A stretch of 64,000 nucleotides of DNA, taken from contig JARKPN010000166.1 of assembly GCA_029975275.1 (NCBI GenBank), forward strand, positions 40,509 through 104,508, written 5' to 3'. The notes under the pieces were generated by a model. It was not told the DNA's origin. It was given only the letters and a program-made list of their open reading frames with translations, and made no database searches. Positions 32,702 through 64,000 of this stretch are shown piece after piece. The position numbers and the translations under genes are program-made. The stretch's first letter is position 1. Each line of letters starts with the position of its first letter. The stretch is from Geobacteraceae bacterium. GTDB lineage: Bacteria > Desulfobacterota > Desulfuromonadia > Geobacterales > Geobacteraceae.

Positions 32702-32702
32702 T

Positions 32703-41342: not shown

Positions 41343-41351
41343 GTCTCCTCC

Positions 41352-41837: not shown

Positions 41838-41909
41838 GATGGCCTCCTTGTCGGTACTTCGTATATGATTATCAGCTGAACTATCCGGTACGGCCTCTTG
41901 AGGCTTTGC

Positions 41910-47767: not shown

Positions 47768-47768
47768 C

Positions 47769-48449: not shown

Positions 48450-48816
48450 TGAACCTCCATTTCCGCATCACCACTAAAAAATCATTCAATGTGAGTGATT
48501 GCAAATAATACAAATCAAATTATGTAAAATCAAGTAAATTAAGATCAAGGGTTGGAAATATTTTAATTTTCACAACCGAGCATTTCTTAAGCTTGCTGGA
48601 TAGTCTGTGAACTAACAATGGAGCACATAGCAGTGTTGTCGTAAAACTTGTAGCGAGGATATGGGGAGGGCGTCGCCTCGACGTAGTTTCCTTCCAGGGC
48701 TTAGATCCAGGCATTGACCAAATAAGACACGGCGCCCAGGCCGGGGCAGGTTATGTCCAGCAATTGAAAATAGAAAGAAACGCCGCAGAACCTTAATAAG
48801 GCTTTGCGGCGTAAAA

Positions 48817-49183
48817 TTACGCGGGTAAGTTGCTGGAGTATATAAATTTTGAAGGAAAGGTAAAGTAATCCTGAAGAAGTTGATAGCCGGAAAACACATG
48901 AGAAAATCCGGGGAGAAGCGCCTCATCCTGACCGAAACCGACCGGCATCAGGCAACCGGGAGGGAGGATCACGGCGGCTCTACCTTTGACCGGCGTGATT
49001 GTCATACGTGTGACATCATTACGGAGGAGAGTATAGAGTTCGGTGTCTAATGCATAATCGCCGGACATTGGGAGAGGGGAAGATCGTTCAGGACAAGTGA
49101 AAGCCTGAGTTCCGGAGCGCCTCTCATCGACCGGCCGAAACAAACATCCCTCAGTTCAAGCGGATGGAGTTCCACGTCGTCAT
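48817..49183 (-). pseudogene. tssF: tssF relic (about 120 codons in two frames; both ends of the gene missing)
   Basis: One frame reads FYDDVELHPLELRDV...GAPELRLSLVLNDLPLSQ. A second frame (ORF 48817-49143) reads GDYALDTELYTLLRND...LMPVGFGQDEALLPGFSHVFSGYQLLQDYFTFPSKFIY. The latter matches the TssF/ImpG signature GF..DEALLP....F.GYRLLQEYFAFPEKF. Confidence 0.7.
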
Positions 49184-49188
49184 AAAAC

Positions 49189-50577: not shown

Positions 50578-51098
50578 TATCTTTCCTTTATCTCCTGAAT
50601 GCTCTCAGGTCCCATGTGAAGATTGATGTTCAGTTTTTGGGGGTTGTTTAGAAGGGAGACCGGGATCTCGTAAGTGCGTACGCAGTTCACCTTATGCAGA
50701 GCATAATAACCCGCGACCAATCCCACGTATTTGGCGCCCTCGGTCCGATCCAGTGCCCCCTTAATCTCCTGTTTCGGTTGGACCACCAGTCTCTTTGCAT
50801 AGGTAACGCCGCCGTCGAAGCGGTTGCACTCCAGGAGCTTCGACAGTCCTCCGTTTTCATCGCTCAACTGTTTGAAACCGTTCAGGTCCTTCAGGTGATA
50901 GACGCAGACGATGAGTGAGTGGGGTTTTCCCTGGTAGAGGTTAAGAAGTGGGTCTCCCTGGAAGCGGAGGGTTATGGCGTCCTTTTCGTGCGTCCATTCC
51001 GGCGGAGAGACGATGGCGGACTTTCCAAAACATGAGCAAAGAAGAAATGGAAGAAGAACGCAGGGAATAGCGAAAGACAGTCTGGTCATTTTGTTCAC
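50577..51098 (-). CDS. tssJ: T6SS outer-membrane lipoprotein TssJ
   Basis: The lipobox is LPFLLCSC. The TssJ-like beta-sandwich pattern is LRFQGDPLLN...HSLIVCVYHLKD...YVGLVAGYY. Its stop overlaps the tssK ATG (TAATG). Confidence 0.85.
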   Translation of the reverse strand: MNKMTRLSFAIPCVLLPFLLCSCFGKSAIVSPPEWTHEKDAITLRFQGDPLLNLYQGKPHSLIVCVYHLKDLNGFKQLSDENGGLSKLLECNRFDGGVTYAKRLVVQPKQEIKGALDRTEGAKYVGLVAGYYALHKVNCVRTYEIPVSLLNNPQKLNINLHMGPESIQEIKER

Positions 51099-51395
51099 CC
51101 CATGGCTGTTTTTTTAGGAAACCGTGTGAATCGGTGCTGGAGCGTGCGGAATATGTAACGGCGGGCCATAATAGTTTAATGAAATAAATAAAGTAGTATA
51201 ATAAAAAATTAATAAATCGATATCATTTATCCAAAGAAGTGTCAATTAATTTTATTAAAAATTAATGTGTATGCTACAAAAATGTCCCCCGGGAATAATC
51301 GTCAAAACCGTCACTTATCCTTTGACAGCAGAGGGACAAGTTGATAACTTACCTGAGTTCGATGATGTTTATTTGAATTTGCGATAGGTGTGTTC

Positions 51396-52304
51396 ATGAA
51401 CCTGAAGCAGCTTGAGGTCTTTATAGCCGTGGCTGAAAGCAGCAGCTTCTCACGCGCCGCCGAGATGACTTTTCTGACCCAATCGACGGTCAGCCAGCAT
51501 ATCTCTTCCCTGGAAACCGAGTTCGGTCTCAAGCTGTTCGACAGGACCGGCAAGGGGGCGCTCCTTACCGAGGCTGGAAAAATCCTTCTCCTGCATGCGC
51601 GACACCTGACCCTTGAAGCGCGTGAAATCCCGCTGATCCTTAACCGGTTCAAAGGCCTTGAAGATGCCGTTCTGAAGATCTGCGGCAGCAATATTCCGGC
51701 CACCTACATGCTCCCGGACTTCATACCGGTATTCCACCGGCTGCATCCGGGGGTTACCATTACGCTGCTTCAGGGGGACAGCCGCGAGACGCTGGAAAGA
51801 CTGCAACGCGAGGAGGTCGAACTGGCGGTGCTGGGAAGCCGGTTCGATGATCCGGGGATTGACTATGCACCCCTGATAATCGACACCGTTTCACTGGTCG
51901 TGAACGCGGACCACCGCTGGAGCGCGAAAGCGAAGGTCTCGGTCGAGGATCTCGTTGTAGAAACCTTCATATTCCGGGAACCCGGATCAGGAACCGACAG
52001 GACCGTGCGGGCCGCGATGGCCGGTGCCGGATTCGACACCGGGCGGCTGAACATCAAGACGTATCTCGGCAGCAACGAAGCGGTCAAGCAGGCTATTCTG
52101 AGCGGCGCCGGGGTGTCGTTCCTCTCCGAGATGTCGGTGAAAAGGGAATGCGAGATGGGCCGCCTGTCGCTGGTAAAGGTCGAGGGGCTCGAAATCTTGA
52201 GGACTATTTACCTGGCCAATAGACTCGGCAGGGAGATGTCGCCGCCGGCCGAGGCATTCGCTTCACTTGTCAAATTGATGTATCGGTCAAATGCCACGGA
52301 ATAG
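51396..52304 (+). CDS. LysR-family transcriptional regulator, divergent from the T6SS operon
   Basis: MNLKQLEVFIAVAESSSFSRAAEMTFLTQSTVSQHISSLE is the LysR HTH, followed by a LysR substrate-binding domain. Confidence 0.9.
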   Translation: MNLKQLEVFIAVAESSSFSRAAEMTFLTQSTVSQHISSLETEFGLKLFDRTGKGALLTEAGKILLLHARHLTLEAREIPLILNRFKGLEDAVLKICGSNIPATYMLPDFIPVFHRLHPGVTITLLQGDSRETLERLQREEVELAVLGSRFDDPGIDYAPLIIDTVSLVVNADHRWSAKAKVSVEDLVVETFIFREPGSGTDRTVRAAMAGAGFDTGRLNIKTYLGSNEAVKQAILSGAGVSFLSEMSVKRECEMGRLSLVKVEGLEILRTIYLANRLGREMSPPAEAFASLVKLMYRSNATE

Positions 52305-52400
52305 AGCTTCTTTTCCCCAGCATCGCCGCGCTGCTTCCATTGTCCTGACAACCGTTCAGCCCGCCTGATGTAAGAAAAATCACTTCAGCCTGGAGGATTA

Positions 52401-53402
52401 ATGCGGAAAATAGACCTGCGGGGCGTCTCGTGTCCTACAACCTTTCTGAAAGCGAAACTGGCACTGGAGATGATCGATGCCGGTGAAACGGTGGAGATTC
52501 TCATGGATGCCGGAGAACCGTCCGTGAACCTGCCTCGCAATTTGAAGCTGGAAGGGCACAGGGTGCTTGGGGTTGAGGAAAAGACGGGGTCTTTCGTCCT
52601 CACCCTGGAAGTGGTTTCTTCGGAGGTGAGGTCACTGGAGCCGGTACGGGTATACCCGTCGGTCAAGTTGACGAAAAACGGCCTCGAGCCTGCTACCGAC
52701 CCGGTGATGGTCGAGGAGACCATGGAGCTGATCATCAACGACACCAGGCTTTCCACCATCGTAACGACCCCGGAGCATCATAGAGAGCTGGCTGTGGGCT
52801 ACATGGTAACCGAGGGGGCAATCAAAGGCCGGAACGATATTGAGGAGATCAGCGAGAAAGAGGGGAGAATCTTCCTGAAGATCAAATCGTTCGATCAGTT
52901 CAACATCTGGCACGAGCTGAGGTCTTCGGGATGCGTCGGGATAAACTGGGACAAGAGGGACGAGGACACAAGTCTCCCAATCAAACGGAAATTTGGGGTC
53001 AATGTCCTGCTGGCAAGCGTCAGGCACCTGTATGACGAGACCCAGGAGCGGACCGGTGGAGCCCACTCCGCCAGCCTGGTGCATGCCGACGGCACCTTGA
53101 TGTACAAAGCGCTGGACATCGGCAGGCACAACGCCATCGACAAGGTGGTGGGGATGGCGGTCCTGAACGGTGACGACCTGTCCGACATGTTCCTGGTTTC
53201 CTCGGGGAGGCAGCCGGCGGGCATGGTCATGAAGGCCGTCAGGGCCGGGATACCGCTGATCGTTTCCAAGTCGGCGCCTGTCAGCTCGGGCATCGACAGT
53301 GCCCTCCGGGCCAACCTCACGCTCTGCTGTTACGCCACCACCCAAAAGCTCAAAGTGTTCTCCGCATCCGAACGGATTGCGGTTACCGGCGCGCTGTCAT
53401 AA
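52401..53402 (+). CDS. fdhD: TusA-like domain fused to the formate dehydrogenase accessory sulfurtransferase FdhD
   Basis: The N-terminal ~75 aa (IDLRGVSCPTTFLKAKLALEMIDAGETVEILMD) is TusA/SirA-like with a CP-x-x motif. The remainder has FdhD motifs (ELAVGYMVTEG, SSGCVG, GGAHSASL, DIGRHNAIDKV). Confidence 0.8.
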   Translation: MRKIDLRGVSCPTTFLKAKLALEMIDAGETVEILMDAGEPSVNLPRNLKLEGHRVLGVEEKTGSFVLTLEVVSSEVRSLEPVRVYPSVKLTKNGLEPATDPVMVEETMELIINDTRLSTIVTTPEHHRELAVGYMVTEGAIKGRNDIEEISEKEGRIFLKIKSFDQFNIWHELRSSGCVGINWDKRDEDTSLPIKRKFGVNVLLASVRHLYDETQERTGGAHSASLVHADGTLMYKALDIGRHNAIDKVVGMAVLNGDDLSDMFLVSSGRQPAGMVMKAVRAGIPLIVSKSAPVSSGIDSALRANLTLCCYATTQKLKVFSASERIAVTGALS

Positions 53403-53964
53403 TTCTCAGCCGGCCCGGAATATCCCATTTCTTCATGAGATCCGCGACCGAAGGGGGCACGAAATCTTCCCACGGATCGTTTTGCGTCATCCGGCGGCGG
53501 ATATCGCTGGCGCTCAACCCCTTCTGATCTACGGCTACCTCCCTGAGAACGTGGGTCTTAAGGCCGAGCGAACTGAAATACTCCAGCTTCCGCTTCCCCC
53601 AGTCGTCGTAGATGGACAGGAAAAACAGCGCATCGAGAGGAACATAGTACCTGTACAGCTCGGGCATGCTGATGGGAAAGGGGACCACTGAGAAACGCGA
53701 GGATTCGATGCCGGACTCTTCCAGGACGGTCCGTGCCATTACGTAACGTTCAAAATAGCTGAGCGGGTTTGCCGACGGGCTGCTCCGCTTCGGGTCCGCC
53801 GATTCGTCCCTTGTCAGGAGCGGATCGGGATTGGTTATACCCACGACCAGGTGCCGGCAGAGCGCCATCCCTGTCATCAGGTATGTCAGGTGGTCGTTGT
53901 GCAGGACCTGGAAGCGGCCGTGAATGACACCTGTTTCGGCATATGGTGCCGGTTCAATGGTCAT
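53383..53964 (-). CDS. Cytidylyltransferase-like (NMN/NaMN adenylyltransferase-like) nucleotidyltransferase
   Basis: GVIHGRFQVLHNDHLTYL is an H-x-G-H-type motif variant. The protein is 193 aa and its 3' end overlaps the fdhD 3' end by 20 nt. Confidence 0.6.
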   Translation of the reverse strand: MTIEPAPYAETGVIHGRFQVLHNDHLTYLMTGMALCRHLVVGITNPDPLLTRDESADPKRSSPSANPLSYFERYVMARTVLEESGIESSRFSVVPFPISMPELYRYYVPLDALFFLSIYDDWGKRKLEYFSSLGLKTHVLREVAVDQKGLSASDIRRRMTQNDPWEDFVPPSVADLMKKWDIPGRLRIMTARR

Positions 53965-54048
53965 GTGATACCCCTTGTTTCCCTTTTCCGGGCCTGCTCC
54001 GCCGAAGCAGCCGAAGGCCTGGCGCCATGCCGATTGTCATGTCTGCTC

Positions 54049-55350
54049 TCACTCGACCTTCAGCGCCGTATATCTCCCCGGTGAGAACGGCTGGTCATCG
54101 GGCGAGTCCATGAGTCCCCAGAGCTTCCCCCGGTCAAGGAAATTCAGCACCAGATACATGAGCTCCGCTCCCCTGACCAGGCTGAGCCCGCCGCGTGCGC
54201 AGCTTATCTCGTCGAATCCCGTCACATCATCCCGCCTGACGTACTTTCCGGTCATTACCAGCGGCACGCTCTCGCCTGTATGGATCATGCTGCCCGAAGC
54301 GGCCGTGGAATGGTCGGCGGTGACGATAAAGAGGACATCGTCGTCGGGCACGATCTCCTGGACGGCGTAGGCAAGCGCCGAATCAACCGACTCTATGACC
54401 TGTTTCTTGAACAGGGGATCCCGGGTGTGACCGGCTTCGTCCACGGCCTTTGTGTGAACATGAACGAAATCGTACTCCTTTGCCTGGCAGGCAATCCTGA
54501 GCCTTTCCCGCAGGTCGCCGCCTGGGTCGTCAGTGTCCACGACCTCGCGGATTTCCATCCCCAGCATCCGGCCGAGCCCGCGATACACGGAGCCCGAGGC
54601 AACCAGCAACGCCTTGAGGCCCCACTTGTCCTGAAACGAGGGGAGCCTTGCCATCGCCCCGGCCCGCTGGGTGCCCACCGCATTGATGGGAGGCAGCCCC
54701 CTTTTCATCCGTTCCTGGTTGACGGGATGCTGCGAAAGGACCTGGTGGCTCCAGCGCAGGTAGTCATTGAGAAACCTGGCCGTGCCCGGGGCACGGGAAT
54801 CGTTCCGCATGGAACGCAACGGGAGGACCTCCATCAGGGGCCGACCCTCAATGATCGGATTGGAGTCGGTCACGGCCTTCGACACCGCCCCCCTGAGGCG
54901 GAGTATGCCTCCTATGCCCTTTGTGGGAAGAAATTCGGCCTCGATACCGTCGCGGCTGAAGTTCCGAATGGTCTCATGCAGGACCCGGCAGCTTTCCCGG
55001 TCAAGCACCGGGTTCTCATGGCGGAGCACCAGGATGTCCCTTTCTCTTGATGCGGAATAGATGCGGGCAAGGAGGGCCACGTCTTCCTCACGCACGTCGA
55101 GCCCTTCTCCAATCGCTTCCAGGGCGCCCCGACCCGGGAATTCATCCATGCGGTAGCCGAACATGAGGAAGTGGGCCAGTTCGCTCGGCAGGGCGGATCC
55201 CTGGAGATGGGCGTGGAACAGCCCGTTCATGCCGGTTGACGCAATCCTGTCGAGATTGGGGGTGTGGGCGGCCTGGAGGGGGGTCTTTCCGTTGAGGACC
55301 GGGTGACTCCGGTCGCCGAGACCGTCGAGAAGAAGAAGGATGCAGCGCAT
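54049..55350 (-). CDS. Cofactor-independent phosphoglycerate mutase-like protein (archaeal ApgM / alkaline phosphatase superfamily)
   Basis: MRCILLLLDGLGDR...TPNLDRIA...DEAGH...TADHSTA are the metal-binding motifs of the iPGM/ApgM family. Confidence 0.75.
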   Translation of the reverse strand: MRCILLLLDGLGDRSHPVLNGKTPLQAAHTPNLDRIASTGMNGLFHAHLQGSALPSELAHFLMFGYRMDEFPGRGALEAIGEGLDVREEDVALLARIYSASRERDILVLRHENPVLDRESCRVLHETIRNFSRDGIEAEFLPTKGIGGILRLRGAVSKAVTDSNPIIEGRPLMEVLPLRSMRNDSRAPGTARFLNDYLRWSHQVLSQHPVNQERMKRGLPPINAVGTQRAGAMARLPSFQDKWGLKALLVASGSVYRGLGRMLGMEIREVVDTDDPGGDLRERLRIACQAKEYDFVHVHTKAVDEAGHTRDPLFKKQVIESVDSALAYAVQEIVPDDDVLFIVTADHSTAASGSMIHTGESVPLVMTGKYVRRDDVTGFDEISCARGGLSLVRGAELMYLVLNFLDRGKLWGLMDSPDDQPFSPGRYTALKVE

Positions 55351-55395
55351 GCAGGGATCCCCTGGAGTAGAGTTTTGGTTTTTGTAGAGTATATC

Positions 55396-56235
55396 CTAAG
55401 CAGCGACCAGGGGAAGCTGCTTATCGGGGAGCGACACAACCGGTTGCAGGGACAGGGTGTCGAGGTAACCTCGAAGGATGTCGCGGGTACGGAGCACCTC
55501 GGCGGGATCCATGAGCTCGATGACCCACCAGTCGCAGAACGGCGCCAGCCCGAGAAGATCCAGCCGATTGTATATGTCCGACAGGCAACGTGGCGCCACA
55601 TGCCCGAAGCCTTCCAGTTCGGTATGGTAGACATGGGCATTTAATATCCTGTCCAGGTGGGGGAGGAGGTAGGCATCGAAAGTGTCGCCTAGCGGGTGGC
55701 TGCCGCTCACTGCATGGGCATGGCCGATGTCGATGGTGACGTGGGAGCCGCTCTCCGTCACGATCCTCTGAAATTGTTGCGGGTCGTTGGTGAGCGGGGT
55801 GGTGAGGTTTTCCAGCGCCACGGTCACGCCGTTGTGCCGACCGTGCTCTACCAGCACGGCCAGGTTGTCGATGGCGCGAGACGCATCGATCCCTTCGCCT
55901 GAGGGGTTGCCGAGCCCGGAGTGCACCGTCATGTGCCGTCCCCCGGCATTCGCCACCTGGTCCGCCGTACGCATCAGGAGCGCAAGTGAATCGTCTCCTC
56001 TCCGGTCTGTGTAGGCCGGATCCACACCGTGAAAGCGGCAATGATAGCGCACCTGGAAGCCGGTCAGGGATTTCATCACTGAGAGGAACTTTCTCTCGGG
56101 GAGAGAGGGATCTATGGACCAGTCGATAGCCGAGAAGCCGTTTGCTTCGGCAAACTCCGCCAGACTGTCCGCATCGTGGTCGAATATGTTGCACATGGCA
56201 AGTGCTGGTTTCATTTTGCTAATCGACAGACTCAA
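55396..56235 (-). CDS. Sugar phosphate isomerase/epimerase (xylose-isomerase-like TIM barrel)
   Basis: The AP_endonuc_2-like pattern is present (VALENLTTP, IDIGHAHAV, HVYHTE). The start may instead be the MKPALAM ATG at 56214. Confidence 0.65.
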   Translation of the reverse strand: MSLSISKMKPALAMCNIFDHDADSLAEFAEANGFSAIDWSIDPSLPERKFLSVMKSLTGFQVRYHCRFHGVDPAYTDRRGDDSLALLMRTADQVANAGGRHMTVHSGLGNPSGEGIDASRAIDNLAVLVEHGRHNGVTVALENLTTPLTNDPQQFQRIVTESGSHVTIDIGHAHAVSGSHPLGDTFDAYLLPHLDRILNAHVYHTELEGFGHVAPRCLSDIYNRLDLLGLAPFCDWWVIELMDPAEVLRTRDILRGYLDTLSLQPVVSLPDKQLPLVAA

Positions 56236-56674
56236 GTTTCAGGCCGAATACTCTTTCCGTATCGTCAACGAGAAAAGTGAGCAGGTACCCGTTCGATCTG
56301 AAGGTGAACGGCTGCTCGTGCTCGGCAAAACCGTATTGAAGTATAATCCGGTTGCCTTCTTCGTACGTCATGCCGGGCCTGACGCCGAACAGGCTGGTGG
56401 CGGGGTTGCGGGTGGTGATTTTCCGTACCTTCCCGTCGAACCCGTAACCGATCACGACATCGAGAGCATCGAAACTCCGCTCGTAACCTTTCAGGCAGGG
56501 CTCGTCAACCCCCTTGATCCCGTTGATCTCCCGGTAGTCCGTATCGGAATGAAGCTGGACGCCGAACACATTCACCTGGTCCTTCAGCGTGTCCCGCTCC
56601 AGGTGCCGTACAGCGCATCCGGTGACAAGCGCAACCGTGATGAAGACGACTATCACAGATTTAAAGAATCCCAT
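56219..56674 (-). CDS. Hypothetical lipoprotein
   Basis: A signal peptide plus lipobox (VALVTGC) is present. I recognised no family. Confidence 0.55.
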   Translation of the reverse strand: MGFFKSVIVVFITVALVTGCAVRHLERDTLKDQVNVFGVQLHSDTDYREINGIKGVDEPCLKGYERSFDALDVVIGYGFDGKVRKITTRNPATSLFGVRPGMTYEEGNRIILQYGFAEHEQPFTFRSNGYLLTFLVDDTERVFGLKLESVD

Positions 56675-56691
56675 TGCCGTACCTGAACAGG

Positions 56692-56720
56692 ACCGGGCCG
56701 CGTTTTGTCCGCGGCCCGGT
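56692..56720 (-). terminator. 11-bp GC-rich hairpin between the rhodanese and lipoprotein genes
   Basis: accgggccgcg-ttttgtc-cgcggcccggt. The trailing T-tract on the minus strand is weak. Confidence 0.4.
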
Positions 56721-56739
56721 GGAATGGCTGTCTACAGCG

Positions 56740-57249
56740 TTACTTGGTGAGCTGGTAACCCGCATCCTGCCATGCGATAATGCCGCCGGGATAACGGTAG
56801 ACGTTGCTGAATCCGTTTTCCACGAGAATTTTCGCGCCGATGTGGCTTCTTCTGCAGGCGACGAAACCGCAATAGAGAACGATGGTTTTCCCCTTGTCCG
56901 GCCCTGCCGCCTTCAACAGGGCGTTCTTGTCGACAGGGGTAAGCTCCTTTTCGGTCTTGGGCATGAACCCGTTCACCGCCGAGGCAATGATGCCCAGAGC
57001 CTTGTCTTCATCGGCAGGGAGCGTACTGATAATGGTCATTGCTTTTCCCGCATCGATCCACTTCTTGAGCTCTTCGGTGGTAACGAGCTGATAGCCGCCG
57101 TCCTTCACATCAGCCACCAGCTTGACGGCGGCAGTCTCGATGGGAACTTCCTTGCCCTGGGGCGACGTCCCGGGAGCAGCGAATGCGTTACCTGTGAACG
57201 CAAAGCACACAAGCAGAGAAGCAACCGTCAACAGTACACGTGATTTCAT
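56740..57249 (-). CDS. Periplasmic rhodanese-domain sulfurtransferase
   Basis: The signal peptide ends AFA. The active-site loop is LYCGFVACRRSH and the C-terminus reads GGIIAWQDAGY. Confidence 0.8.
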   Translation of the reverse strand: MKSRVLLTVASLLVCFAFTGNAFAAPGTSPQGKEVPIETAAVKLVADVKDGGYQLVTTEELKKWIDAGKAMTIISTLPADEDKALGIIASAVNGFMPKTEKELTPVDKNALLKAAGPDKGKTIVLYCGFVACRRSHIGAKILVENGFSNVYRYPGGIIAWQDAGYQLTK

Positions 57250-57289
57250 ATAACCTCCTGATTATTTAAGATCTGTGTTCAGCAAAGCT

Positions 57290-57580
57290 ATCTATTTATA
57301 AGGGTAATGTCAAATCGATAATTACTATTGGAATTTTGCTTTATATCGAGTATTTCTATAAGAAAAAAGCTTATAGTGACAAAACTGACCTGACACACAT
57401 GAGCCGGACGAGTAACTTGCTCGGCTTGTTCGCGCCGGCCCATGCAACAGTTCTCCAAGATAGCTCCGTATCTTGCCGTACAATACCTTGCGCCGATATT
57501 TCGGAGCCCACACGATATGGTACTTGCACTCCCATTTTGTGTGGCATAAACTTTCTGGGTCGTCAATGAAGCCTCCTTTC
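57290..57580 (-). mobile_element. IS200/IS605-family tnpA relic (frameshifted and truncated)
   Basis: One frame reads HTKWECKYHIVWAPKYRRKVLYGKIRSYLGELL, the Y1 transposase N-terminal signature. The AGGAGG-TTG start is in a different frame. The similarity degenerates after about 45 codons and the His-hydrophobic-His / Tyr regions are absent. The patch is low-GC. Confidence 0.7.
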
Positions 57581-57782
57581 TCTGAATTTTGAGCGGTTCA
57601 CGTATGTCCAAGGCTTGGAGTGAAATTATCGATATGACGGAATGGTGGTGAAAGGTTCAGCGGGTTTCTACGGCGTGGCTGCGGTAAGGCGCGGTCTTGC
57701 CGGTCCGGACCGCAAAGCAACCTGAGTCGGCCACGTGATTCTGAAAGGTATCGGCGGATTGCAGGGTGAGGGAAATCAATAG

Positions 57783-58676
57783 TTATGCAATGTTGTCCTG
57801 TTGTTCCGCCGTAACAGGCAGTTCCACCTGTGCATCCCTGCAGGCACGCGGAATGTGATTGATGATTTCAAGTATCTGGGTGGCCGGCGTCGGTCGGGCG
57901 TAGCAGCCTGCCAGTCTGTTGACGCGCATGGCTGTGACTGCCGCCCGTCGTATGTCAAACCCGGCCTCGATGAAGACCGACACAAGGCCGGTCAGGGTGT
58001 CGCCCGTACCGCCGATGGCCTCCAACGCCTCTTCAACCGGGCTATCGACCGTTTCCAGTACCCCGCTTTCATCTGCCAGGTAATCGGCCTTTCCCTTGAC
58101 CAGCAGATAACGTGCGGCGTTGCGGTGTTGGTAGGCCCGGGCGATGAGATCCGGGACGAGGTTGTCTTCATGAAGGATAAAACCCCGGGTGTAGAAGGGG
58201 TGGGGCGCCTCTTCGTCGGCCAGAAACGCCAGCTCGCCCACATCGGGGGTGAAGAGGTCGTAGGCGGACGCCTCACCGCTCATTTTCGCCATATACATGT
58301 ATCCCGCATCGGCGATGAGACGCGGCCGCGAGTCCATGTTCCGGAGGACCGACAGCAGCCGGGCATGCCGATGGACGATGGGCTGCAGGTAGTGAAAGGT
58401 AATGGTCCGGAAGGATACGCCGGCTAGTGTTTCGGTCAAGTGTGCATACAGGCGGTGGCTCCCCTTGCCGCTTCCCGTGTCTCCCACCAGGTACGCAAAC
58501 GGCGCCGGAAGGCCCAGTGCCTCGCAGGCTTTCACTGCGGCGGCGAGAAGGGCCGGGGTTCCCCGGTTGACATCGATGTTCAACTTGCCGATGCGCAGCC
58601 GTCCACCGTCGAGCGAAACGACCCCTCCAACAAGGGGAAAATCATCGGATGGAACGGTTCCCGCTACGCAGAGCAT
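57783..58676 (-). CDS. YjeF_C / ribokinase-superfamily protein (NAD(P)HX-dehydratase-like fold)
   Basis: FTPDVGELAFL, LLVKGKADYL and AIGGTGDTLTG are the pattern of YjeF C-terminal-type kinases/dehydratases. The start was chosen at MLCVAGT. It is the last gene of the operon. Confidence 0.55.
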   Translation of the reverse strand: MLCVAGTVPSDDFPLVGGVVSLDGGRLRIGKLNIDVNRGTPALLAAAVKACEALGLPAPFAYLVGDTGSGKGSHRLYAHLTETLAGVSFRTITFHYLQPIVHRHARLLSVLRNMDSRPRLIADAGYMYMAKMSGEASAYDLFTPDVGELAFLADEEAPHPFYTRGFILHEDNLVPDLIARAYQHRNAARYLLVKGKADYLADESGVLETVDSPVEEALEAIGGTGDTLTGLVSVFIEAGFDIRRAAVTAMRVNRLAGCYARPTPATQILEIINHIPRACRDAQVELPVTAEQQDNIA

Positions 58677-59224
58677 CGGCGTTTGACCTCCTCGTAGGCG
58701 AGCTGCAGCGCGTAGCCGCACAGGGTGTGCCCGATAGAGCGCGGACTCGGCGCGTCCGTGATGGTCCGTCCCACCATGGAAGCGGCCAGGTAGGGGACGT
58801 CCGGGCAGCCGCCGCCCGAGATATTGACGAAGACGCCCGTTTTTTTGTCAATGGTCAGTTTCATGTTCGCCGCGCGCACCATGAGGTGCTCGCCGAAGTC
58901 CTTGACATGAAAGATGTCCACCGGCTGGAGAAGAGGACCGATTACAGGCACTATCCTTAGCGGCGGCAGCTTTGCCGTTTCCAGAATTCTTAGGATGTCC
59001 AGCTGTTCGATGAGGGGAAACTCGATAACCAGATCACACCCCTGCCGCACTTCCGGGGGCGGGCCCATGACCCGGATTGTCCACCCTTCCTGCTTCAGAA
59101 CCGTTTCAGCCTGGATGACCTCGCCGGTATTTTCAAACAGAAGAATCCCCCGGTCACAGTTGGACTCCGGACCGGTGGATTCTTCCTTGTTTTTGTTACT
59201 TTTCAAAAAATCTAAGATAGCCAA
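58664..59224 (-). CDS. DUF3343-like (putative Se/S carrier) domain fused to an uncharacterised Cys-containing C-terminal domain
   Basis: The N-terminal half (GILLFENTGEVIQAETVLKQEGWTIRVMGPPPEVRQGCDLVIEF) fits DUF3343. The C-terminal half contains ISGGGCPDVPYLAASMVG. Confidence 0.55.
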   Translation of the reverse strand: MAILDFLKSNKNKEESTGPESNCDRGILLFENTGEVIQAETVLKQEGWTIRVMGPPPEVRQGCDLVIEFPLIEQLDILRILETAKLPPLRIVPVIGPLLQPVDIFHVKDFGEHLMVRAANMKLTIDKKTGVFVNISGGGCPDVPYLAASMVGRTITDAPSPRSIGHTLCGYALQLAYEEVKRRCSA

Positions 59225-59453
59225 GCTCTTTATCCTTACCCTTTTTTATCGTTATAGCGCAGCCGTCCGACTCGTCGCGGATTTCCGAGAGCGTCCAGCC
59301 CCGGTCCGTGGCCGCGCGGCAAACGTTTTCCTTGGCGGTATCGTTGTCCACAACGATGCAGATTTCATCCGATTGGCCCGATTTGATGGCATTCATCGTC
59401 ATGAGGACCGGTTGGGGGCACGAAAGCCCCCGTACATCAACTTTTACAACCAT
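59196..59453 (-). CDS. yedF: YedF/TusA-like sulfur/selenium carrier protein
   Basis: MVVKVDVRGLSCPQPVLMTMNAIKSG carries the CPxP motif. An AGGAGGA RBS lies upstream and the gene sits directly downstream of yedE. Confidence 0.8.
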   Translation of the reverse strand: MVVKVDVRGLSCPQPVLMTMNAIKSGQSDEICIVVDNDTAKENVCRAATDRGWTLSEIRDESDGCAITIKKGKDKELGYLRFFEK

Positions 59454-59464
59454 GGTTTCCTCCT

Positions 59465-60559
59465 TTATGCAATTCTTTTTCTCATGGTAAATCCAATGAA
59501 CAGGCACACCAGCATGCCGATAATGACCGCCTGGATCCCGTAAGGACCGATGCCCTTCGGCGTGCTTGCCAGACCAAAGTTATGGCTGAAGGCAGCCCCG
59601 AAAACCATGCCCAGTACGAAAATGGCGGCGTCGCCGTCTCCTTCGCCCGACAGGAACAACTGGCGGCCGGGACAGCCTCCGGCAAGGCAGAAAGCCAGGC
59701 CGGACAGCATCATGCCGGCGAAGTTCCACACCTGCATGGTGTGGGCGACGGGCTGTCCCTGGAATCCGGGATGGAACTGCCCGGCCAAGAAATTGAAAAC
59801 AAAGGCGGTTACGATAAGGGCGATGAATCCCGAAAGGAGGTGCATATGCCTGAACAGAACAAAGTCGCGGATGGCGCCCATGGTGCAGAAACGGCTCCTT
59901 TGGGCGAGAAATCCGATGAGAAGCCCCACAGCTAAGGATATAAGGAGCGGCGCATGCATGGAACCGGGACCCTTCAGGCTGAAGAAAAGCACCTCGTTTT
60001 TCGCCTGGCCGGAGATCGGCGGGTAGACGAGCATCAGAAACAGCAGTCCCGCCATGATTATGGGGAGCATGAGGCCTGCCGTAAAATGAGTCTGCTGGGT
60101 TCTGCCTAGAGAGTAGCCGCTTTTCAGGAAAAGGGTGCCGACCCAGATGCCGAAGCCGAGACCGAGCAGTCCGATGATGGCGGAACCGTCACCGCCAGCA
60201 AGACGCAGTGCCGCGCGCCAGGGGCATCCGAGAAACACCAGTGCACCGATCATGGCGAAAGCGCCCAGCACGAAACGCACCACCGGCGCGGAGCCGAGGC
60301 GGGGCCGGTATTCCTTGAACATCAAGGCGGCTATCAATGATCCGAGCACGAAACCGATGATTTCAGGACGGACATACTGCACTACGTCGGCGCGGTGAAG
60401 GCCGACGGCGCCGGTTATGTCACGCAGGAAGCAGGCGACGCACACTCCCATATTGCCCGGATTCCCCAGTTTCTGCAGCAGGGGCGCAAGTATACCGATT
60501 ACGATCCCGACGGCGATGATGCCCCAGCGTCCAGCGAAAAAGTTTTTCAAACCGACCAC
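59465..60559 (-). CDS. yedE: YedE/FdhT-family selenium/sulfur-compound transport membrane protein
   Basis: 364 aa and polytopic. The paired conserved Cys motifs are GNMGVCVACFLRD and CLAGGCPGRQ. Confidence 0.8.
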   Translation of the reverse strand: MVGLKNFFAGRWGIIAVGIVIGILAPLLQKLGNPGNMGVCVACFLRDITGAVGLHRADVVQYVRPEIIGFVLGSLIAALMFKEYRPRLGSAPVVRFVLGAFAMIGALVFLGCPWRAALRLAGGDGSAIIGLLGLGFGIWVGTLFLKSGYSLGRTQQTHFTAGLMLPIIMAGLLFLMLVYPPISGQAKNEVLFFSLKGPGSMHAPLLISLAVGLLIGFLAQRSRFCTMGAIRDFVLFRHMHLLSGFIALIVTAFVFNFLAGQFHPGFQGQPVAHTMQVWNFAGMMLSGLAFCLAGGCPGRQLFLSGEGDGDAAIFVLGMVFGAAFSHNFGLASTPKGIGPYGIQAVIIGMLVCLFIGFTMRKRIA

Positions 60560-60621
60560 GCATTCCTCCTTTTTTCATGACATTTAGTTTGGACTGCCTT
60601 TGTATGAGGGAATTCACTGAC

Positions 60622-61539
60622 TCAATAAAGTGTTAACGCCCCACGCGACGACATTGGCTGTTCCTGTGAGTGATCCGGTTGCAGGAGACCGACGGCATCC
60701 GACCGGCACCGTGTGCAGTGACTCATCTGGGGGACATGGCGGGAGGCGATGATTCGTATGCGGCGCAATTCGTCGGGCGACGGCGGTATCAATCCCGCAA
60801 AGGGGGTGTCCGCGACAGGCATCACCGGAAGGCAGTTCATCACGTCGACGCCCATCTCCGCCATCGTAGCGGCAATCGTCTCGACGTGGCCGTCGTTGAT
60901 GCCGGGCAGGATTACCGTGTTCACCTTCACCGCAATCCCTTTCGTCTTCAGTACCGTGAGTGCCTCCTGCTGGCGTGCCAACAGCAATTCGGCCGCATCT
61001 CGACCACGATAGATCATCCCGTCCACGCGGACCCAGGCATAGATTCTCTCTCCCACCGACGGATCCACCGCATTCACCGTAATCGTGACATGGGTTACCC
61101 CCGATGCGGCCAGTCCGTCGATGTGGCCGATCAGGTTCAGGCCGTTGGTGGACAGACAGATGAGGAAACCCGGCCAGGCGCGGCGGATCTCCCGGATTGT
61201 TTCCAATGTGCGCTCAGGGTCGCAGAGAGCGTCGCCGGGACCGGCAATGCCGATGACCGAGATGTCGGTCCCGGCTTTGAGCAGGGTGGAGAGATAGGGG
61301 ACTGTGTCACGTGGTTGAAGAATTCTACTGGTAACACCCGGCCTGCTTTCATTGGTACAGTTGTATCGGCGGTTGCAGTAATTGCACCTGATATTGCACT
61401 CCGGCGCAACCGGAAGATGGATACGCCCCCATCGCCCCTGTGCCGAATTGTTGAAGCAGGGATGGGACGAATCGGATCCGGGCGTGCTTTTCATTACCAG
61501 AGACACGTTACACCCGCTTTCTGCCGACTTTGATGGCAT
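60622..61539 (-). CDS. Stand-alone NifB-type radical SAM protein (no NifX-like domain)
   Basis: HLPVAPECNIRCNYCNRRYNCTNESRPGVTS is nearly identical to the NifB radical-SAM signature. The SAM-core motifs GIAGPGDAL, STNGL and VTITVNAVD, and a C-terminal Cys cluster (HCTRCRSDAVG), are also present. Confidence 0.75.
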   Translation of the reverse strand: MPSKSAESGCNVSLVMKSTPGSDSSHPCFNNSAQGRWGRIHLPVAPECNIRCNYCNRRYNCTNESRPGVTSRILQPRDTVPYLSTLLKAGTDISVIGIAGPGDALCDPERTLETIREIRRAWPGFLICLSTNGLNLIGHIDGLAASGVTHVTITVNAVDPSVGERIYAWVRVDGMIYRGRDAAELLLARQQEALTVLKTKGIAVKVNTVILPGINDGHVETIAATMAEMGVDVMNCLPVMPVADTPFAGLIPPSPDELRRIRIIASRHVPQMSHCTRCRSDAVGLLQPDHSQEQPMSSRGALTLY

Positions 61540-62272
61540 CGATCGGACAGGATCCGAGACAGTCGGCGCAATTGGTGCAGTTCACCTCATCAGGGCGAGT
61601 CCCCATCTCACAGACCTTCAGACAGTCATCGCAGTCGTTGCAGGCCCCGGTCTTGAACACCCTGAACAGTGAGAACCTCCTGAACAGCTCCAGCAGACCG
61701 CCGGTGGGACAGGCGAACCGGCACCACAGGTTGGCGACAAGGAAACCGGCGGCGACCAGCCCGAGGACGACGAAAGTCCTTACAAGCCAGAATGGAGTGG
61801 CATGCTCGAAGGAGAGCCTTACGGAATTCCAGAATTCACCTGCGCGAATGGGGACCATCCAGCGCGGGTTGCCGAGATAGAGCCAAAGGACGAGGGATGC
61901 GGCGAGACCCGCGAACAGCCCCCATGCCGCAAACCCGGTGAAGCGGTTCCTGATACGCAGCTTGAACAGGGACATTTTGCCGATCAACTGGTTGACGAGA
62001 CCACCGGGACACAGCCAGCCGCAGAATGCGCGGCCGAACAGGAGGACCGAAATCGGGAGAACCAGCCAGAACCCCCAGAACAGAGAAGTAACTCTTCCCC
62101 AGCAGGTGATGACGGGACAGGCCTTGCAGTCCACGAACGGAACCGGGAAGGGGCAGCGGAAAATGCCGTAAAAAGACCATTGGCCGAGCACTGCGAGCAT
62201 GCCGGTCTGCACCGCGCGACGCAGCCAGATCAGGGGTTTCACGGCCGCGGTTTTGAGTTCATTATCAGACAT
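61508..62272 (-). CDS. NapH/MauN/NosR-like membrane-bound 4Fe-4S polyferredoxin
   Basis: Several TM helices carry CGWLCPGG and RFACPTGG motifs. The C-terminus has a 2x[4Fe-4S] ferredoxin (CNDCDDCLKVCEMG, CTNCADCLGSCP). Confidence 0.75.
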   Translation of the reverse strand: MSDNELKTAAVKPLIWLRRAVQTGMLAVLGQWSFYGIFRCPFPVPFVDCKACPVITCWGRVTSLFWGFWLVLPISVLLFGRAFCGWLCPGGLVNQLIGKMSLFKLRIRNRFTGFAAWGLFAGLAASLVLWLYLGNPRWMVPIRAGEFWNSVRLSFEHATPFWLVRTFVVLGLVAAGFLVANLWCRFACPTGGLLELFRRFSLFRVFKTGACNDCDDCLKVCEMGTRPDEVNCTNCADCLGSCPIDAIKVGRKRV

Positions 62273-63131
62273 CCTTCACCCCCAGCTTTTCGATGAGCAT
62301 CCGGCCCTTGTCCGAGTCGGCCGGAATGAACCCCTGCCTTTCAAAGATCGCCTGTGCCTCCCGCGAGCAGATGAAGTCCACGTAGTGATCGGCCAGCGCT
62401 CGGTCTGTGGCGGCGTTCATTGTCCCGATGGTAAAGGTGAGAGGGCCGGGCGGGAAAAATTTCTCCGGAATGGGGATTACCTCTACCTTGCCTTCGTGTG
62501 CCGCCATGCGGGTGAGACGCTTCTCGACGATTGAGACATCGCCTTTTCCGCCGATGATCGCGGGCATCATCTTGACGACGCAGGTTTCCCTCTCGGTCAT
62601 GTTCGCTAGCACGGTCTTCTCAATCCCGGCCTTTTTGAGGATTCCCGTCACGGCGTCGCCGCCCGGTGGGGAAGCGCCCAGCGGAAGGATGACCCGAACC
62701 CCGTGCCGCGTCAGATCTTCCAGGGTCTTTATGCCGGCGGCGTTCCCTTTCGGGGTGACCATCACGTACTCGGTGAAGCAGAGAGGTCGGAAGTATGCCA
62801 TCTTGTCCTTCTCCCGAAGCGTCTTTGCCAACTTCAAGACCCGTCCCGCGAAAACCTCTGTTGTCGCTCCGCCGAGCAGTGACTTGCCAAGCGCCGCCGC
62901 GAACGCGCCGGTGTAAGCGATCCGGACCCCGGTTTTGCTTTCAAATTGGCTGTTCGCCAGGTTAAATGCCTCCGACAGCCCGCCGCATGACCAGACCTGA
63001 AGCGTATCGGCCTTGAACTGGCCCGCAGCCAGACGTTGTGGGGCCAGGGAGGCCGTGAGAGCCGCGGCCGCAGCTGTCTTGAGAAAGGCTCTTCTGTCCA
63101 TCGAACATTTTTTGTTTCCCATCAATTTCAC
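62265..63131 (-). CDS. Tat-signal periplasmic binding protein, ModA/WtpA-like (oxyanion-binding PBP fold)
   Basis: A twin-arginine motif (DRRAFLKTAAAAALTASLAP) is present. The PBP type-II pattern (LQVWSCGGLSEAFNLANSQFESKTGVRIAYTGAFAAALGKSL) resembles the molybdate/tungstate-binding protein N-terminus. Confidence 0.6.
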   Translation of the reverse strand: MKLMGNKKCSMDRRAFLKTAAAAALTASLAPQRLAAGQFKADTLQVWSCGGLSEAFNLANSQFESKTGVRIAYTGAFAAALGKSLLGGATTEVFAGRVLKLAKTLREKDKMAYFRPLCFTEYVMVTPKGNAAGIKTLEDLTRHGVRVILPLGASPPGGDAVTGILKKAGIEKTVLANMTERETCVVKMMPAIIGGKGDVSIVEKRLTRMAAHEGKVEVIPIPEKFFPPGPLTFTIGTMNAATDRALADHYVDFICSREAQAIFERQGFIPADSDKGRMLIEKLGVKDV

Positions 63132-63313
63132 CTTTCCAAATGCCTGGGATTATTTCCATGCGGCTGTAAAGAGTAATTTTCATGAGTATATACAGGGAAG
63201 ACCAACAACAGGTCAAATGGATAATATTGATGATATTTGTGAAACATATTAATTATTTCAATGCTGGTTTGGGAAGTGAAATCTGCCTGGCAGACGAATT
63301 GATATGATGAATT

Positions 63314-63342
63314 CAATCCGGGCGCATTGCACGCCCGGATTG
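63314..63342 (-). terminator. Hairpin terminator after the FDH-like gene
   Basis: caatccgggcg-cattgca-cgcccggattg forms an 11-bp stem 14 nt past the stop at 63356. An A/T-rich tract follows on the minus strand. Confidence 0.6.
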
Positions 63343-63355
63343 TCTGTAAATAGGG

Positions 63356-64000
63356 TCAGATCAATTTTTCCAACCGTACTGCGCAGATCTTGTACTCGCC
63401 GGTCTGGCTGATGGGGTCGAAGGCGTGTACGGTGAGCTCATTGGTGGGAGTCGTGGCATGGTGGAAGCTCATCCAGATCATGCCTGGCTGTACCTTGTCG
63501 GTCACCTGTATCCCGGTGGTCACGCTGCCCCTGCGGGAGGTGACCCGCAGCCGGTCGCCGTCACCGACGGACAGGTTTTTCGCGTCCCTCGGATGGAGCA
63601 TGGCCGCCTCTTGCGGCACGTAATCCGACAGCGCCTTGGATTGACGGGTGGTGACATTGTAGTGTGACAGGATGCGGCCGGTGGAGAGGAGGAAGGGGTA
63701 TTCCTCGTCGGGAAGTTCCGCGGGAGGAATGTGCTCGATCCCCTTCAGCAGCCCAAGGCCGCGGGTGAAGGTCTTCGTGTGCAGGATGGCCGTACCCGGA
63801 TGGTCGATGGACGGGCAGGGCCATTGCAGGCCGTCATTATCGATCCGGTCGTAATTGATCCCGGTGAAGATGGGGGACAGGGCAGCCAGTTCGTCCCAGA
63901 TTTCGCCGGGCCAGGAGTAGTCCATGGGATAGCCCATGCGTTTGGCGACCTCACAGACGATCCACCAGTCGGCACGGGTGTCGGCGATGGGTTCGATGGC
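63356..64000 (-). CDS. Molybdopterin (bis-MGD) oxidoreductase, formate dehydrogenase alpha-like, C-terminal part (gene continues beyond the window end)
   Basis: LSTGRILSHYNVTTRQSKAL...MLHPRDAKNLSVGDGDRLRVTSRRGSVTTGIQVTDKVQPGMIWMSFHH...DPISQTGEYKICAVRLEK is the FdhF/FdhA-type C-terminal molybdopterin dinucleotide-binding domain. The reading frame is open upstream to 64000. Confidence 0.8.
   Translation of the reverse strand, partial: AIEPIADTRADWWIVCEVAKRMGYPMDYSWPGEIWDELAALSPIFTGINYDRIDNDGLQWPCPSIDHPGTAILHTKTFTRGLGLLKGIEHIPPAELPDEEYPFLLSTGRILSHYNVTTRQSKALSDYVPQEAAMLHPRDAKNLSVGDGDRLRVTSRRGSVTTGIQVTDKVQPGMIWMSFHHATTPTNELTVHAFDPISQTGEYKICAVRLEKLI

Follow-up and report, generated by a model that had tools for sequence, protein, structure and literature searches.

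Two independently conserved modules, one built around a NifB paralog and the other a selenium-linked cassette, adjoin in a variable genomic island of Geobacteraceae

Genes that lie head to tail in one compact array raise the question of whether their products constitute one biochemical system or several. A case in point is a stretch of 64,000 nucleotides from a Geobacteraceae bacterium (GenBank assembly GCA_029975275.1, contig JARKPN010000166.1, positions 40,509 to 104,508 of the forward strand; hereafter the window, to which all coordinates refer unless a locus is named), in which seven genes occupy positions 57783-63131 of the minus strand. In order of transcription they code for a binding protein with a twin-arginine translocation (Tat) signal, a NapH-type membrane polyferredoxin, a NifB paralog of the radical S-adenosylmethionine (SAM) superfamily, a YedE-family putative selenium transporter, a small TusA-like sulfur/selenium carrier, a fusion of the DUF3343 (Se_S_carrier) and DUF8182 domains, and a divergent enzyme of the ribokinase superfamily. 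A prior reading of the DNA made without database searches (the sequence-only reading) had treated the array as a single operon, plausibly dedicated to the maturation or delivery of a metallocofactor for the neighboring formate dehydrogenase (FDH), and had noted that no described pathway unites these genes. On the last point our searches agree, since no paper or curated family that does so was found. As to the first, we find that the seven genes are two independently conserved modules and not one conserved operon: module A, or the trio, comprises the genes for the binding protein, the NapH-like protein and the NifB paralog (60622-63131), and module B, or the cassette, those for YedE, the TusA-like protein, the DUF3343-DUF8182 fusion and the kinase-like enzyme (57783-60559).

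The compactness of the array is itself beyond doubt. All seven open reading frames lie head to tail where the sequence-only reading had placed them, their Pfam and NCBIfam domains are those it had named, and neighboring genes either overlap or are at most 62 nt apart. The widest gap, of 62 nt, separates the NifB-like gene from yedE (60559-60622); it contains a strong ribosome-binding site (AAGGAGG) and lacks a hairpin. An 8-nt overlap joins the binding-protein gene to the NapH-like one, and the DUF3343-fusion and kinase-like genes overlap by 13 nt if the latter is read from its 297-aa start. Gene callers favor later starts in three of the genes (290, 72-85 and 297 aa), which alter the overlaps and leave the adjacency of the seven intact. 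Both halves are found again in many unrelated genomes, which puts the arrangement far outside what chance would produce.

The boundaries of the array are less sharply drawn. On the 5' side lies the 3' end of the gene for the FDH alpha subunit (63356-64000, minus strand; Molydop_binding, E = 3.2e-29), which continues beyond the window. Its stop codon is followed by a G+C-rich hairpin of 12 bp (63314-63342, minus strand), previously described as a terminator: the hairpin is indeed strong (-22.8 kcal/mol, z = -5.6, with 0 of 200 shuffles equally stable), but it has no U tract and for that reason is not called by a terminator scan. The same scan detected no credible intrinsic terminator within or 3' of the seven genes, and the region 3' of the last, kinase-like, gene folds no better than shuffled sequence. 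The AT-rich spacer of about 190 nt 5' of the binding-protein gene contains a sigma-70-like promoter match (63252-63280, minus strand; TTCACT-17-AATAAT with extended TG), which is a consensus match only, and an Rfam scan of positions 50000-64000 with E up to 1 returned zero matches. The 3' edge of the unit is marked, as had been noticed, by a relic of an IS200/IS605 Y1 transposase (57325-57570, minus strand; Y1_Tnp, E = 2.1e-8), cut short to profile positions 2-41 of 121.

Comparison across genomes separates the two halves. An alignment of the NapH-like protein, run against a single genome of each species, yielded 27 trio loci, in Geobacteraceae, Smithella, Syntrophus, Syntrophorhabdus, Desulfomonilia, Acidobacteriota, Sporomusa and other Negativicutes, Megasphaera, and metagenome-assembled genomes (MAGs) of Bacillota. 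In these the binding-protein gene adjoins the NapH-like gene wherever the contig extends that far, and all the full loci examined preserve the 8-nt overlap. Directly downstream of the NapH-like gene is the NifB-like gene in 23 loci; the exceptions are L035, where the sequence stops just downstream of the NapH-like gene, and L027, L028 and L029. The last three come from Sporomusa silvacetica and two MAGs, and have peroxiredoxin, C39-like peptidase or SLH-domain genes in the following position. Between phyla, the trio proteins share 55-88% identity. The kinase-like protein, used in turn to scan metagenomes, recovered 80 cassette loci at 51-86% identity, in which the genes upstream of the kinase-like one code for the DUF3343-DUF8182 fusion (73 loci), TusA (56) and YedE (50), the missing genes being mostly those lost to cut contigs; SelD (23), YedF (10) and the selenium-associated LysR regulator, LysR_Se (10), are encoded nearby. 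None of these 80 loci has the trio, and none of the 27 trio loci has the full cassette, with both the DUF3343 fusion and the kinase-like gene absent from all 27. Hence, the idea of the seven genes as one conserved operon has to be given up: each module is widely conserved, and the joint order is confined to the close relatives of the window (loci L004-L007 and L041).

Related islands, in which an FDH gene is followed by different sets of genes, put this order in context. In L016 the trio follows, then a set of genes that includes one of the ApgM family (the ApgM set, described below), and in L015 the trio, SelD, TupABC and then the ApgM set. In L047 the FDH gene is followed by the cassette, SelD and TupA, in L043 by the cassette, SelD and TupABC, and in the window and L041 by the trio and then the cassette, with a gap of 850 nt between the two halves in L041. 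As the island carries different modules in different relatives, the seven-gene order is a lineage-specific juxtaposition within a variable island, and a rearrangement at its edge would fit the IS200 relic found there. In L043, from a Syntrophotaleaceae genome, the selD gene directly after the cassette (8891-9946 of that locus, plus strand) has an in-frame TGA at the canonical position (VKAAG-U-AAKL), from which it follows that SelD is itself a selenoprotein there; the public gene call of this selD has no Pfam match.

What, then, might each module do? The component of the trio with the best understood relatives is the product of its third gene (60622-61539, minus strand; probable alternative start at 61494), a NifB paralog that consists of the radical SAM core without the NifX domain. 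Against the NifB model TIGR01290 it scores 315.6 bits, just below the cutoff of 343.65, and it matches only up to position 286 of 441 because the NifX domain is absent. A PDB sequence search gave Methanothrix NifB (6y1x, E = 3.7e-75) as the closest solved relative. In an alignment of 108 sequences of this short clade with 35 NifB-NifX sequences, with which the alignment to 6y1x agrees, C28, H41, C48/52/55, C61, C128, C236, C275 and C278 are invariant wherever the residue is covered, so that all nine NifB cysteines and His41 are kept, including the radical SAM CX3CX2C motif and the cysteines of the K1 and K2 clusters. Judged by its sequence, the radical SAM protein is genuinely of the NifB type, as had been proposed.

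The paralog is nevertheless set apart from canonical NifB by both phylogeny and context. It belongs to a clade with about 63% identity within itself and about 53% to NifB-NifX, and 100 of the 108 short-clade sequences have a cysteine (Cys106, in a GPGDxLC motif) where all 35 canonical NifB-NifX proteins have alanine; this residue offers a simple sequence marker of the trio-linked form. Two longer NifB-like proteins, P0076 and P0100, which might have been taken for fusions, look rather like frameshifted NifB-NifX genes. The canonical relatives (54-58% identity) lie in nifH-I1-I2-D-K-E-N-B clusters. No NifH-like sequence was found in the 590 kb of trio loci together with the window, nor any nifH within 10 kb of module A; as a positive control, the nifH query gave E of about 1e-127 in two canonical NifB-NifX loci. 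Given the lack of nif neighbors and the separate clade, a role in nitrogenase biogenesis was rejected.

In comparison with NifB, the MarB/NflB proteins and archaeal NifB, the paralog is 53-59% identical to NifB-NifX and shares its SAM-domain-only form with archaeal NifB, but it never adjoins nifH, nifDK, nifEN or nitrogenase-like genes and is always coupled, instead, to a binding protein with a Tat signal and a membrane protein of the NapH type. The clusters made by NifB, the L-clusters, are known to act outside nitrogenase in the activation complex of methyl-coenzyme M reductase (MCR) (PMC12176620), and NifB homologues also serve nitrogenase-like systems (PMC13474568). The partners discussed in reviews of NifB homologues are limited to nif, nitrogenase-like and MCR-related proteins (PMC13474568, PMC12176620). 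Literature on NifB in connection with YedE, NapH, selenium or double-cubane clusters yielded no description of this gene set, no curated model or paper was found for the trio, and the public annotations of its proteins are generic. Module A is thus an undescribed, probably envelope-spanning system.

Its membrane component, the NapH-like protein (61508-62272, minus strand), has the Fer4_5 architecture with membrane helices, two cytoplasmic CX3CP motifs and two C-terminal four-cysteine ferredoxin motifs, all features shared with NapH of the NapGH pair, NosR and MauN; like these, it is encoded next to a Tat-exported periplasmic protein. Likeness to NapH itself ends there. The protein is only 27% identical to Escherichia coli NapH, falls far under the family cutoffs (48.4 bits against 213 for the NapH/MauN model TIGR02163), and has no NapA, NapG or NapB encoded nearby, the context being neither a nap nor a mau operon; in place of a NapG, NapA or NosZ partner it has a radical SAM enzyme and a protein of the ModA fold. 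An identity as bona fide NapH was rejected on the curated cutoffs. The protein further has an extra four-cysteine loop (C40/C49/C52/C57), absent from E. coli NapH, which belongs to a total of 16 cysteines invariant among 27 orthologues and is predicted from hydropathy and charge distribution to face the periplasm. The family is small and tight, an E threshold of 1e-30 leaving 18 representatives out of 1.84 billion, and its members are 68-73% identical between phyla.

The first gene of the trio (62265-63131, minus strand; SBP_bac_11, E = 1.2e-43) codes for the binding protein, which the sequence-only reading had labeled as Mo/W-type. This label is valid at the level of the fold only, since the protein lies below the ModA cutoff and carries cysteines in its anion loop. 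An AlphaFold2 model (pLDDT 77) retrieved ModA and PEB3 in Foldseek searches with TM scores of 0.7-0.84 at about 20% identity. With ModA, PEB3 and the sulfate-binding proteins of the SBP_bac_11 family the protein has in common the class II binding-protein fold and the conserved loops at the N-terminal ends of its helices. The score against the ModA model TIGR01256, 44.7 bits, is below the cutoff of 62.5, as it is for every other ModA model, and bona fide ModA identity was accordingly rejected. Three cysteines, Cys49, Cys118 and Cys184, are invariant. The loop with Cys49 is the aligned counterpart of the Ser12 anion loop in E. coli ModA, which we take to read AAAS; the equivalent stretch here is SCGG, so that cysteine stands in place of serine and alanine and there is no serine-containing anion loop. 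The underlying profile alignment covers the N-lobe only, and Cys118 and Cys184 are placed at cleft and hinge positions on the basis of predicted secondary structure. The surrounding SLQVWSCGG motif is kept among orthologues, as is the twin-arginine motif RRxFLK at the N-termini of orthologues from several phyla. The protein differs from ModA and PEB3 also in this invariant Tat signal and in its genetic context: there is no ModB- or ModC-like partner, neither permease nor ATPase of an ATP-binding cassette (ABC) transporter, in the unit conserved across the 27 loci.

Neighboring genes provide the contextual evidence on function, and were counted within 10 kb of the trio in the 27 species-level loci, many on short contigs. 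The most frequent neighbor is a double-cubane [8Fe-9S] reductase (NF040772, 527 bits; nine loci), followed by its activase (six loci) and NitT/TauT-type ABC genes (five to seven loci), whose permease is SaoP-related and below cutoff. YedE, YedF and SelD are each encoded in three loci, and a selenocysteine-lyase-like desulfurase (cysteine desulfurase/SclA-like) and the selenium LysR in two each. At least one of YedE, YedF, SelD and LysR_Se is found in eight of the 27 (L015-L017, L020, L035-L037 and L039), two of which also hold the cysteine desulfurase/SclA-like gene, and a selenium gene or a double-cubane reductase in 13. In Sporomusa, the trio occurs with YedE and TusA beside genes for URO-D-like and B12-binding proteins, a type of cluster linked to methyl-selenide metabolism (PMC10418091).

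The double-cubane reductases of NF040772 are themselves almost confined to genomes with selD, and a selenium-bridged 8Fe-9S cofactor has been raised for them as a formal possibility (Haft and Gwadz, bioRxiv 10.1101/2022.07.06.499078). The selenocysteine-assisted organometallic (SAO) system delineated by the same authors resembles the trio in its restriction to anaerobes, in the cleft cysteines of its binding proteins, and in its proximity to NF040772 reductases, their activase and co-located selenium genes. The two are distinct: the SAO paper describes no radical SAM, NifB-like or NapH-like component, none of our seven proteins matches the models for SaoA, B, C, D, E, L, P, T or X, and the Sporomusa permease beside the trio scores 143 bits against the SaoP cutoff of 295.

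Distant relatives of the NapH-like protein (36-39% identity) are again encoded with NifB-like radical SAM and SBP_bac_11 proteins, in a different gene order. One such variant (L131, 1-4835) is accompanied by an OprO/P-type anion porin; another (L130, 1-14913) by ExbB-ExbD-TonB, a tetratricopeptide-repeat protein, a split MrpORP carrier with the Nitro_FeMo-Co domain, a damage-control phosphatase and methyltransferases. Both variants keep the four-cysteine loop and a VW(S/A)CGG motif, and their NifB-like proteins have no equivalent of Cys61. One gene in this group was called as a putative SBP_bac_11-methyltransferase fusion, and its 5' end lies beyond the stored locus. As all three parts are kept at this distance, the trio proteins are functionally coupled, and the outer-membrane uptake components of the variants point to a ligand that comes from outside the cell.

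Turning to the cassette, its YedE-family protein (59465-60559, minus strand) matches the putative selenium transporter model TIGR04112 over residues 14-357, with 487.1 bits against a cutoff of 200, and the thiosulfate transporter TsuA with only 39.6 bits. The next gene (59196-59453, minus strand; longest reading frame from 59507) codes for the TusA-like carrier (TusA, E = 2.8e-16), which has a CPxP motif within the sequence DVRGLSCPQPV. It had been named YedF, and it does correspond to the first, TusA-like, domain of that protein. Bona fide YedF, taken as a two-domain protein of about 194 aa above the cutoff, was rejected, since the protein has 72-103 aa and scores 54.9 bits against 110 for TIGR03527 with only profile positions 1-72 covered; the true YedF is encoded upstream, outside the window. 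The DUF3343-DUF8182 fusion (58664-59224, minus strand) matches Se_S_carrier (PF11823, E = 6.5e-21) with 74 bits against 25, its DUF8182 domain being taken from precomputed Pfam assignments; Cys63, Cys140, His166, Cys169 and Cys184 are conserved in 60 orthologues.

The last gene of the cassette (57783-58676, minus strand; longest reading frame from 58721) codes for the kinase-like enzyme, which has a GGTGDTLTG motif. It belongs to Pfam Carb_kinase (E = 2.6e-9; 37.3 bits against a cutoff of 27); its earlier description as YjeF_C-like is not supported. The score against the YjeF_C/NAD(P)HX dehydratase model TIGR00196 (32.4 bits, cutoff 129.85) led us to reject NnrD membership, a PDB sequence search gave no match, and a Foldseek search with the AlphaFold2 model (pLDDT 87.6) retrieved only PfkB, ThiD and YxkO/NnrD at the superfamily level (TM 0.5-0.6), with PfkB and ThiD level with NnrD. 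It is therefore best regarded as a divergent ribokinase-superfamily protein without a close structural relative, and no curated family model was found for it. The 13-nt overlap between the stop of the DUF3343-fusion gene and the start of the kinase-like gene recurs in 47 of 73 loci, which suggests that the two proteins are a working pair.

YedE, YedF and DUF3343 were proposed as candidates for selenium transport and trafficking by Lin et al. in 2015 (PMC5322559), and the use of YedE, TusA and DUF3343 in the sequence-only reading as markers of selenium/sulfur trafficking was correct. The cassette shares YedE, a carrier like TusA or the N-terminal part of YedF, and DUF3343 with their set, and likewise occurs near selD, YedF and LysR_Se. 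It departs from that set in the fusion of DUF3343 to DUF8182 and its translational coupling to a ribokinase-fold enzyme, which Lin et al. do not mention (PMC5322559). Thus, the association of YedE, YedF and DUF3343 is already published; for the fusion with DUF8182 and the ribokinase-fold enzyme coupled to it, there appears to be no earlier description.

We tentatively favor, at somewhat less than even confidence, an explanation in which two independently inherited modules with the following roles have come to lie side by side in a variable selenium/tungsten/FDH island. Module B probably feeds selenium to SelD. YedE would carry a reduced selenium species across the membrane, from which selenium could be relayed by way of the cysteines of the TusA-like and DUF3343-DUF8182 proteins, with the translationally coupled ribokinase-fold enzyme presumably using ATP at one of the steps; the route would end at SelD, which is encoded directly downstream in related genomes. 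A thiol relay that brings imported selenium to SelD with an ATP-dependent step is the most economical reading of this module.

For module A, what is bound, which way electrons flow, which cluster is made and for which client are all inferred, as follows. The Tat-exported, thiol-lined ModA-fold protein might bind an anionic, thiophilic species in the periplasm, with preference given to a chalcogen one, for instance an oxyanion of selenium or sulfur; thio-molybdate or thio-tungstate has also to be considered. The neighbors of the trio point to chalcogen chemistry. The NapH-type polyferredoxin could then process the bound species by shuttling electrons between its cytoplasmic [4Fe-4S] clusters and the periplasmic four-cysteine loop. 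Docked on the cytoplasmic side, the NifB paralog would fuse [4Fe-4S] units into an 8Fe L-cluster-like core, the likeliest clients being the selenium-linked double-cubane reductases, with selenium or sulfur as the bridging atom. If so, the trio would be a categorically new bacterial system, in which a NifB paralog makes a nitrogenase-type 8Fe cluster for a client other than nitrogenase. We put this forward with reserve, as possible though rather unlikely, and that judgment covers two forms of the proposal jointly. In one, the product would be a selenium-bridged double-cubane or L-cluster-like cofactor destined for the selenium-linked double-cubane reductases, and its bridging atom would be caught by the thiol-lined protein that Tat delivers to the cell exterior. 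In the second form, the cluster would be exported on the Tat-signal protein, as an unprecedented periplasmic enzyme wired by the NapH-like polyferredoxin.

Several points weigh against this proposal. Every step of the mechanism rests on inference from sequence and models. L027-L029 have the binding-protein and NapH-like genes with no adjacent NifB-like gene, and the available flanks, often short, contain no selenium gene and no double-cubane reductase in 14 of the 27 trio loci. An importer is missing from the trio, and the bound atom could cross the membrane only if YedE or the NapH-like protein let it through. Double-cubane proteins have been made with their cluster in E. coli, which argues against the need for a dedicated maturase. 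The invariant Tat signal suits the loading of a cofactor before export and a plain binding protein equally, and one copy of the binding protein in L131 has no room for a signal peptide, so that the fold is not tied to the periplasm. Finally, the neighbors related to molybdenum and tungsten (MoeA, MobA, TupABC and FDH, along with MrpORP in L130) keep a ligand containing these metals in play.

The alternative that survives best, although we consider it unlikely, is that the two modules are functionally unrelated and were brought together by a rearrangement hot spot, with the NifB paralog working for a nitrogenase or nitrogenase-like enzyme whose genes lie in another part of the genome. The separation of the modules in nearly all genomes sampled, the IS200 relic flanking the cassette, the gap between the halves in L041, the retention of every NifB ligand and the known NifB homologues of nitrogenase-like systems (PMC13474568) all fit such a history. 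However, in Sporomusa and Megasphaera YedE and TusA came to the trio by independent events, and in further lineages it has other selenium genes beside it. A nitrogenase client is also at odds with the want of nifH-like genes in the trio loci, with the status of the paralog as a clade of its own with the signature Cys106, and with its constant coupling to the same two non-nif partners, even at 35-39% identity.

Unlikely, too, is the proposal that all seven genes form one dedicated maturation or delivery system, for a Mo/W-Se/S or unusual Fe-S cofactor, that acts on the adjacent FDH. Both modules do lie directly downstream of the gene for the FDH alpha subunit in the window and in Geobacteraceae-like relatives. 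The nearest species-level relatives are Geobacteraceae MAGs, and the same DNA is present in assembly GCA_040771705.1 (L004), where the flanks beyond the window end can be seen: 5' of the FDH gene are genes for two rhodaneses, a full-length YedF (213 bits), a helix-turn-helix protein, MoeA and MobA. These, together with a TusA-FdhD fusion in the same island and TupABC in relatives, speak for such a role. A Syntrophus contig moreover has the trio followed by HdrA-like, FlpD and FDH genes, and a Moco-II RNA motif precedes FDH, after a double-cubane reductase gene, in L016 (5590-5635) and L043 (2921-2966); the motif was not found in the matching region of L004, the window's own genome.

Outside this lineage the link is weak. 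Apart from the Syntrophus contig, an FDH gene occurs within 10 kb in just four of the 27 trio loci, all from Geobacteraceae, and in three of the 80 cassette loci, two of them by weak matches of 27-30% identity; none is nearby in the loci of Sporomusa, Megasphaera, Smithella, Syntrophorhabdus and Acidobacteriota. The modules, as noted, are inherited independently, and no riboswitch or common regulatory RNA was found in the window. The FDH alpha gene seen whole in L004 (893 aa, NuoG-fused type, TIGR01591 863 bits) is uninterrupted, and its product therefore has no selenocysteine. A dedicated role in FDH maturation is thus partly supported, as possible in this lineage; it is not the best general reading, because the FDH link is lineage-limited and the selenium and double-cubane links are broader.

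Doubtful in a higher degree is the notion that module A handles molybdenum or tungsten, with the cysteine-lined protein taking up thiomolybdate or thiotungstate, the NapH-like protein and NifB paralog building a heterometal cluster of the ORP/NifQ type, and module B merely adjacent. The fold is nearest to that of ModA, the thiols of the anion loop suit thio-anions, TupABC, MoeA, MobA and FDH are among the neighbors, and the distant variants add the anion porin of L131 and, in L130, the split MrpORP carrier. Yet the binding protein is below every ModA cutoff, and the Rfam scan found no Moco riboswitch 5' of its gene in the window and seven relatives, the two Moco-II matches preceding FDH genes. 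The MrpORP link is a single locus, and Mo/W genes accompany the trio in one lineage only, as against several for the selenium and double-cubane genes.

Equally hard to credit is that the Tat-signal protein is itself the client, receiving the NifB-made 8Fe cluster in the cytoplasm and being exported folded as a periplasmic redox enzyme wired by the NapH-like protein: such a role might explain its conserved twin-arginine motif, the three invariant cysteines at cleft and hinge positions, a NifB paralog with neither NifX nor any other invariant partner to accept its product, and the L131 copy by which the fold can be cytoplasmic, and would parallel the service of NapH/NosR-family proteins to Tat-exported metalloenzymes (NapA by NapGH, NosZ by NosR). 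Against it, the structure as predicted shows the usual ModA fold of small-anion binders, a gene for a Tat chaperone is missing, and in L027-L029 the protein is encoded without a NifB-like gene alongside. The porin and TonB components of the distant variants suggest an imported ligand, and we know of no periplasmic-binding-protein fold that holds an Fe-S cluster.

The remainder of the island extends beyond the IS200 relic. A rhodanese with a Sec-type signal peptide (56740-57249, minus strand; Rhodanese, E = 1.5e-11), which matches the N-terminal domain of the TsoB selenoprotein model, is possibly a periplasmic sulfur/selenium transferase. Together with a 151-aa lipoprotein with a lipobox and no family match (56219-56674, minus strand), it lies between the relic and the ApgM set, and the two suggest periplasmic handling of sulfur or selenium. 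The ApgM set (53383-56235, minus strand) is made up of genes that by family matches code for an AP_endonuc_2 TIM-barrel protein, an ApgM-family metalloenzyme (TIGR00306, 349 bits, with a secondary PhpG-like match) and a nucleotidyltransferase-like protein. Its genes recur in about one to four of the 27 trio loci each and in three to eight of the 80 cassette loci each, and may be a third module of selenium islands; an ApgM-like gene is also present near the Sporomusa trio. The FdhD sulfurtransferase with an N-terminal TusA domain (52401-53402, plus strand; TIGR00129 168 bits, cutoff 141; TusA/YedF-like residues 3-71) and a selenium-metabolism-associated LysR regulator (51390-52304, plus strand; NF040786 284.9 bits, cutoff 250), which probably controls the island, come next. 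The island abuts a type VI secretion cluster (39846-51098, minus strand) that codes for TssJ, TssK, DotU, TssM, TssA and a sheath protein, and the window further contains genes for cytochrome bd oxidase subunits I and II (31355-33731, plus strand); both appear to be unrelated to the modules.

Chemistry of the NifB type was long taken to be exclusive to nitrogenase, until work published in 2025 placed L-clusters in the activation complex of archaeal MCR. A compact, conserved NifB paralog with non-nif partners would extend this chemistry to ordinary anaerobic bacteria. The trio would also offer a handle on the role and cofactor assembly of the selenium-linked double-cubane reductases, and on the in vivo source of the extra bridging atom of NifB-type clusters. 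The cassette, for its part, adds a strongly conserved DUF8182 domain and ribokinase-fold enzyme to the route that leads from YedE to SelD. As the modules occur in the cultivable Sporomusa ovata, Megasphaera cerevisiae and Syntrophus buswellii, these ideas are open to test.

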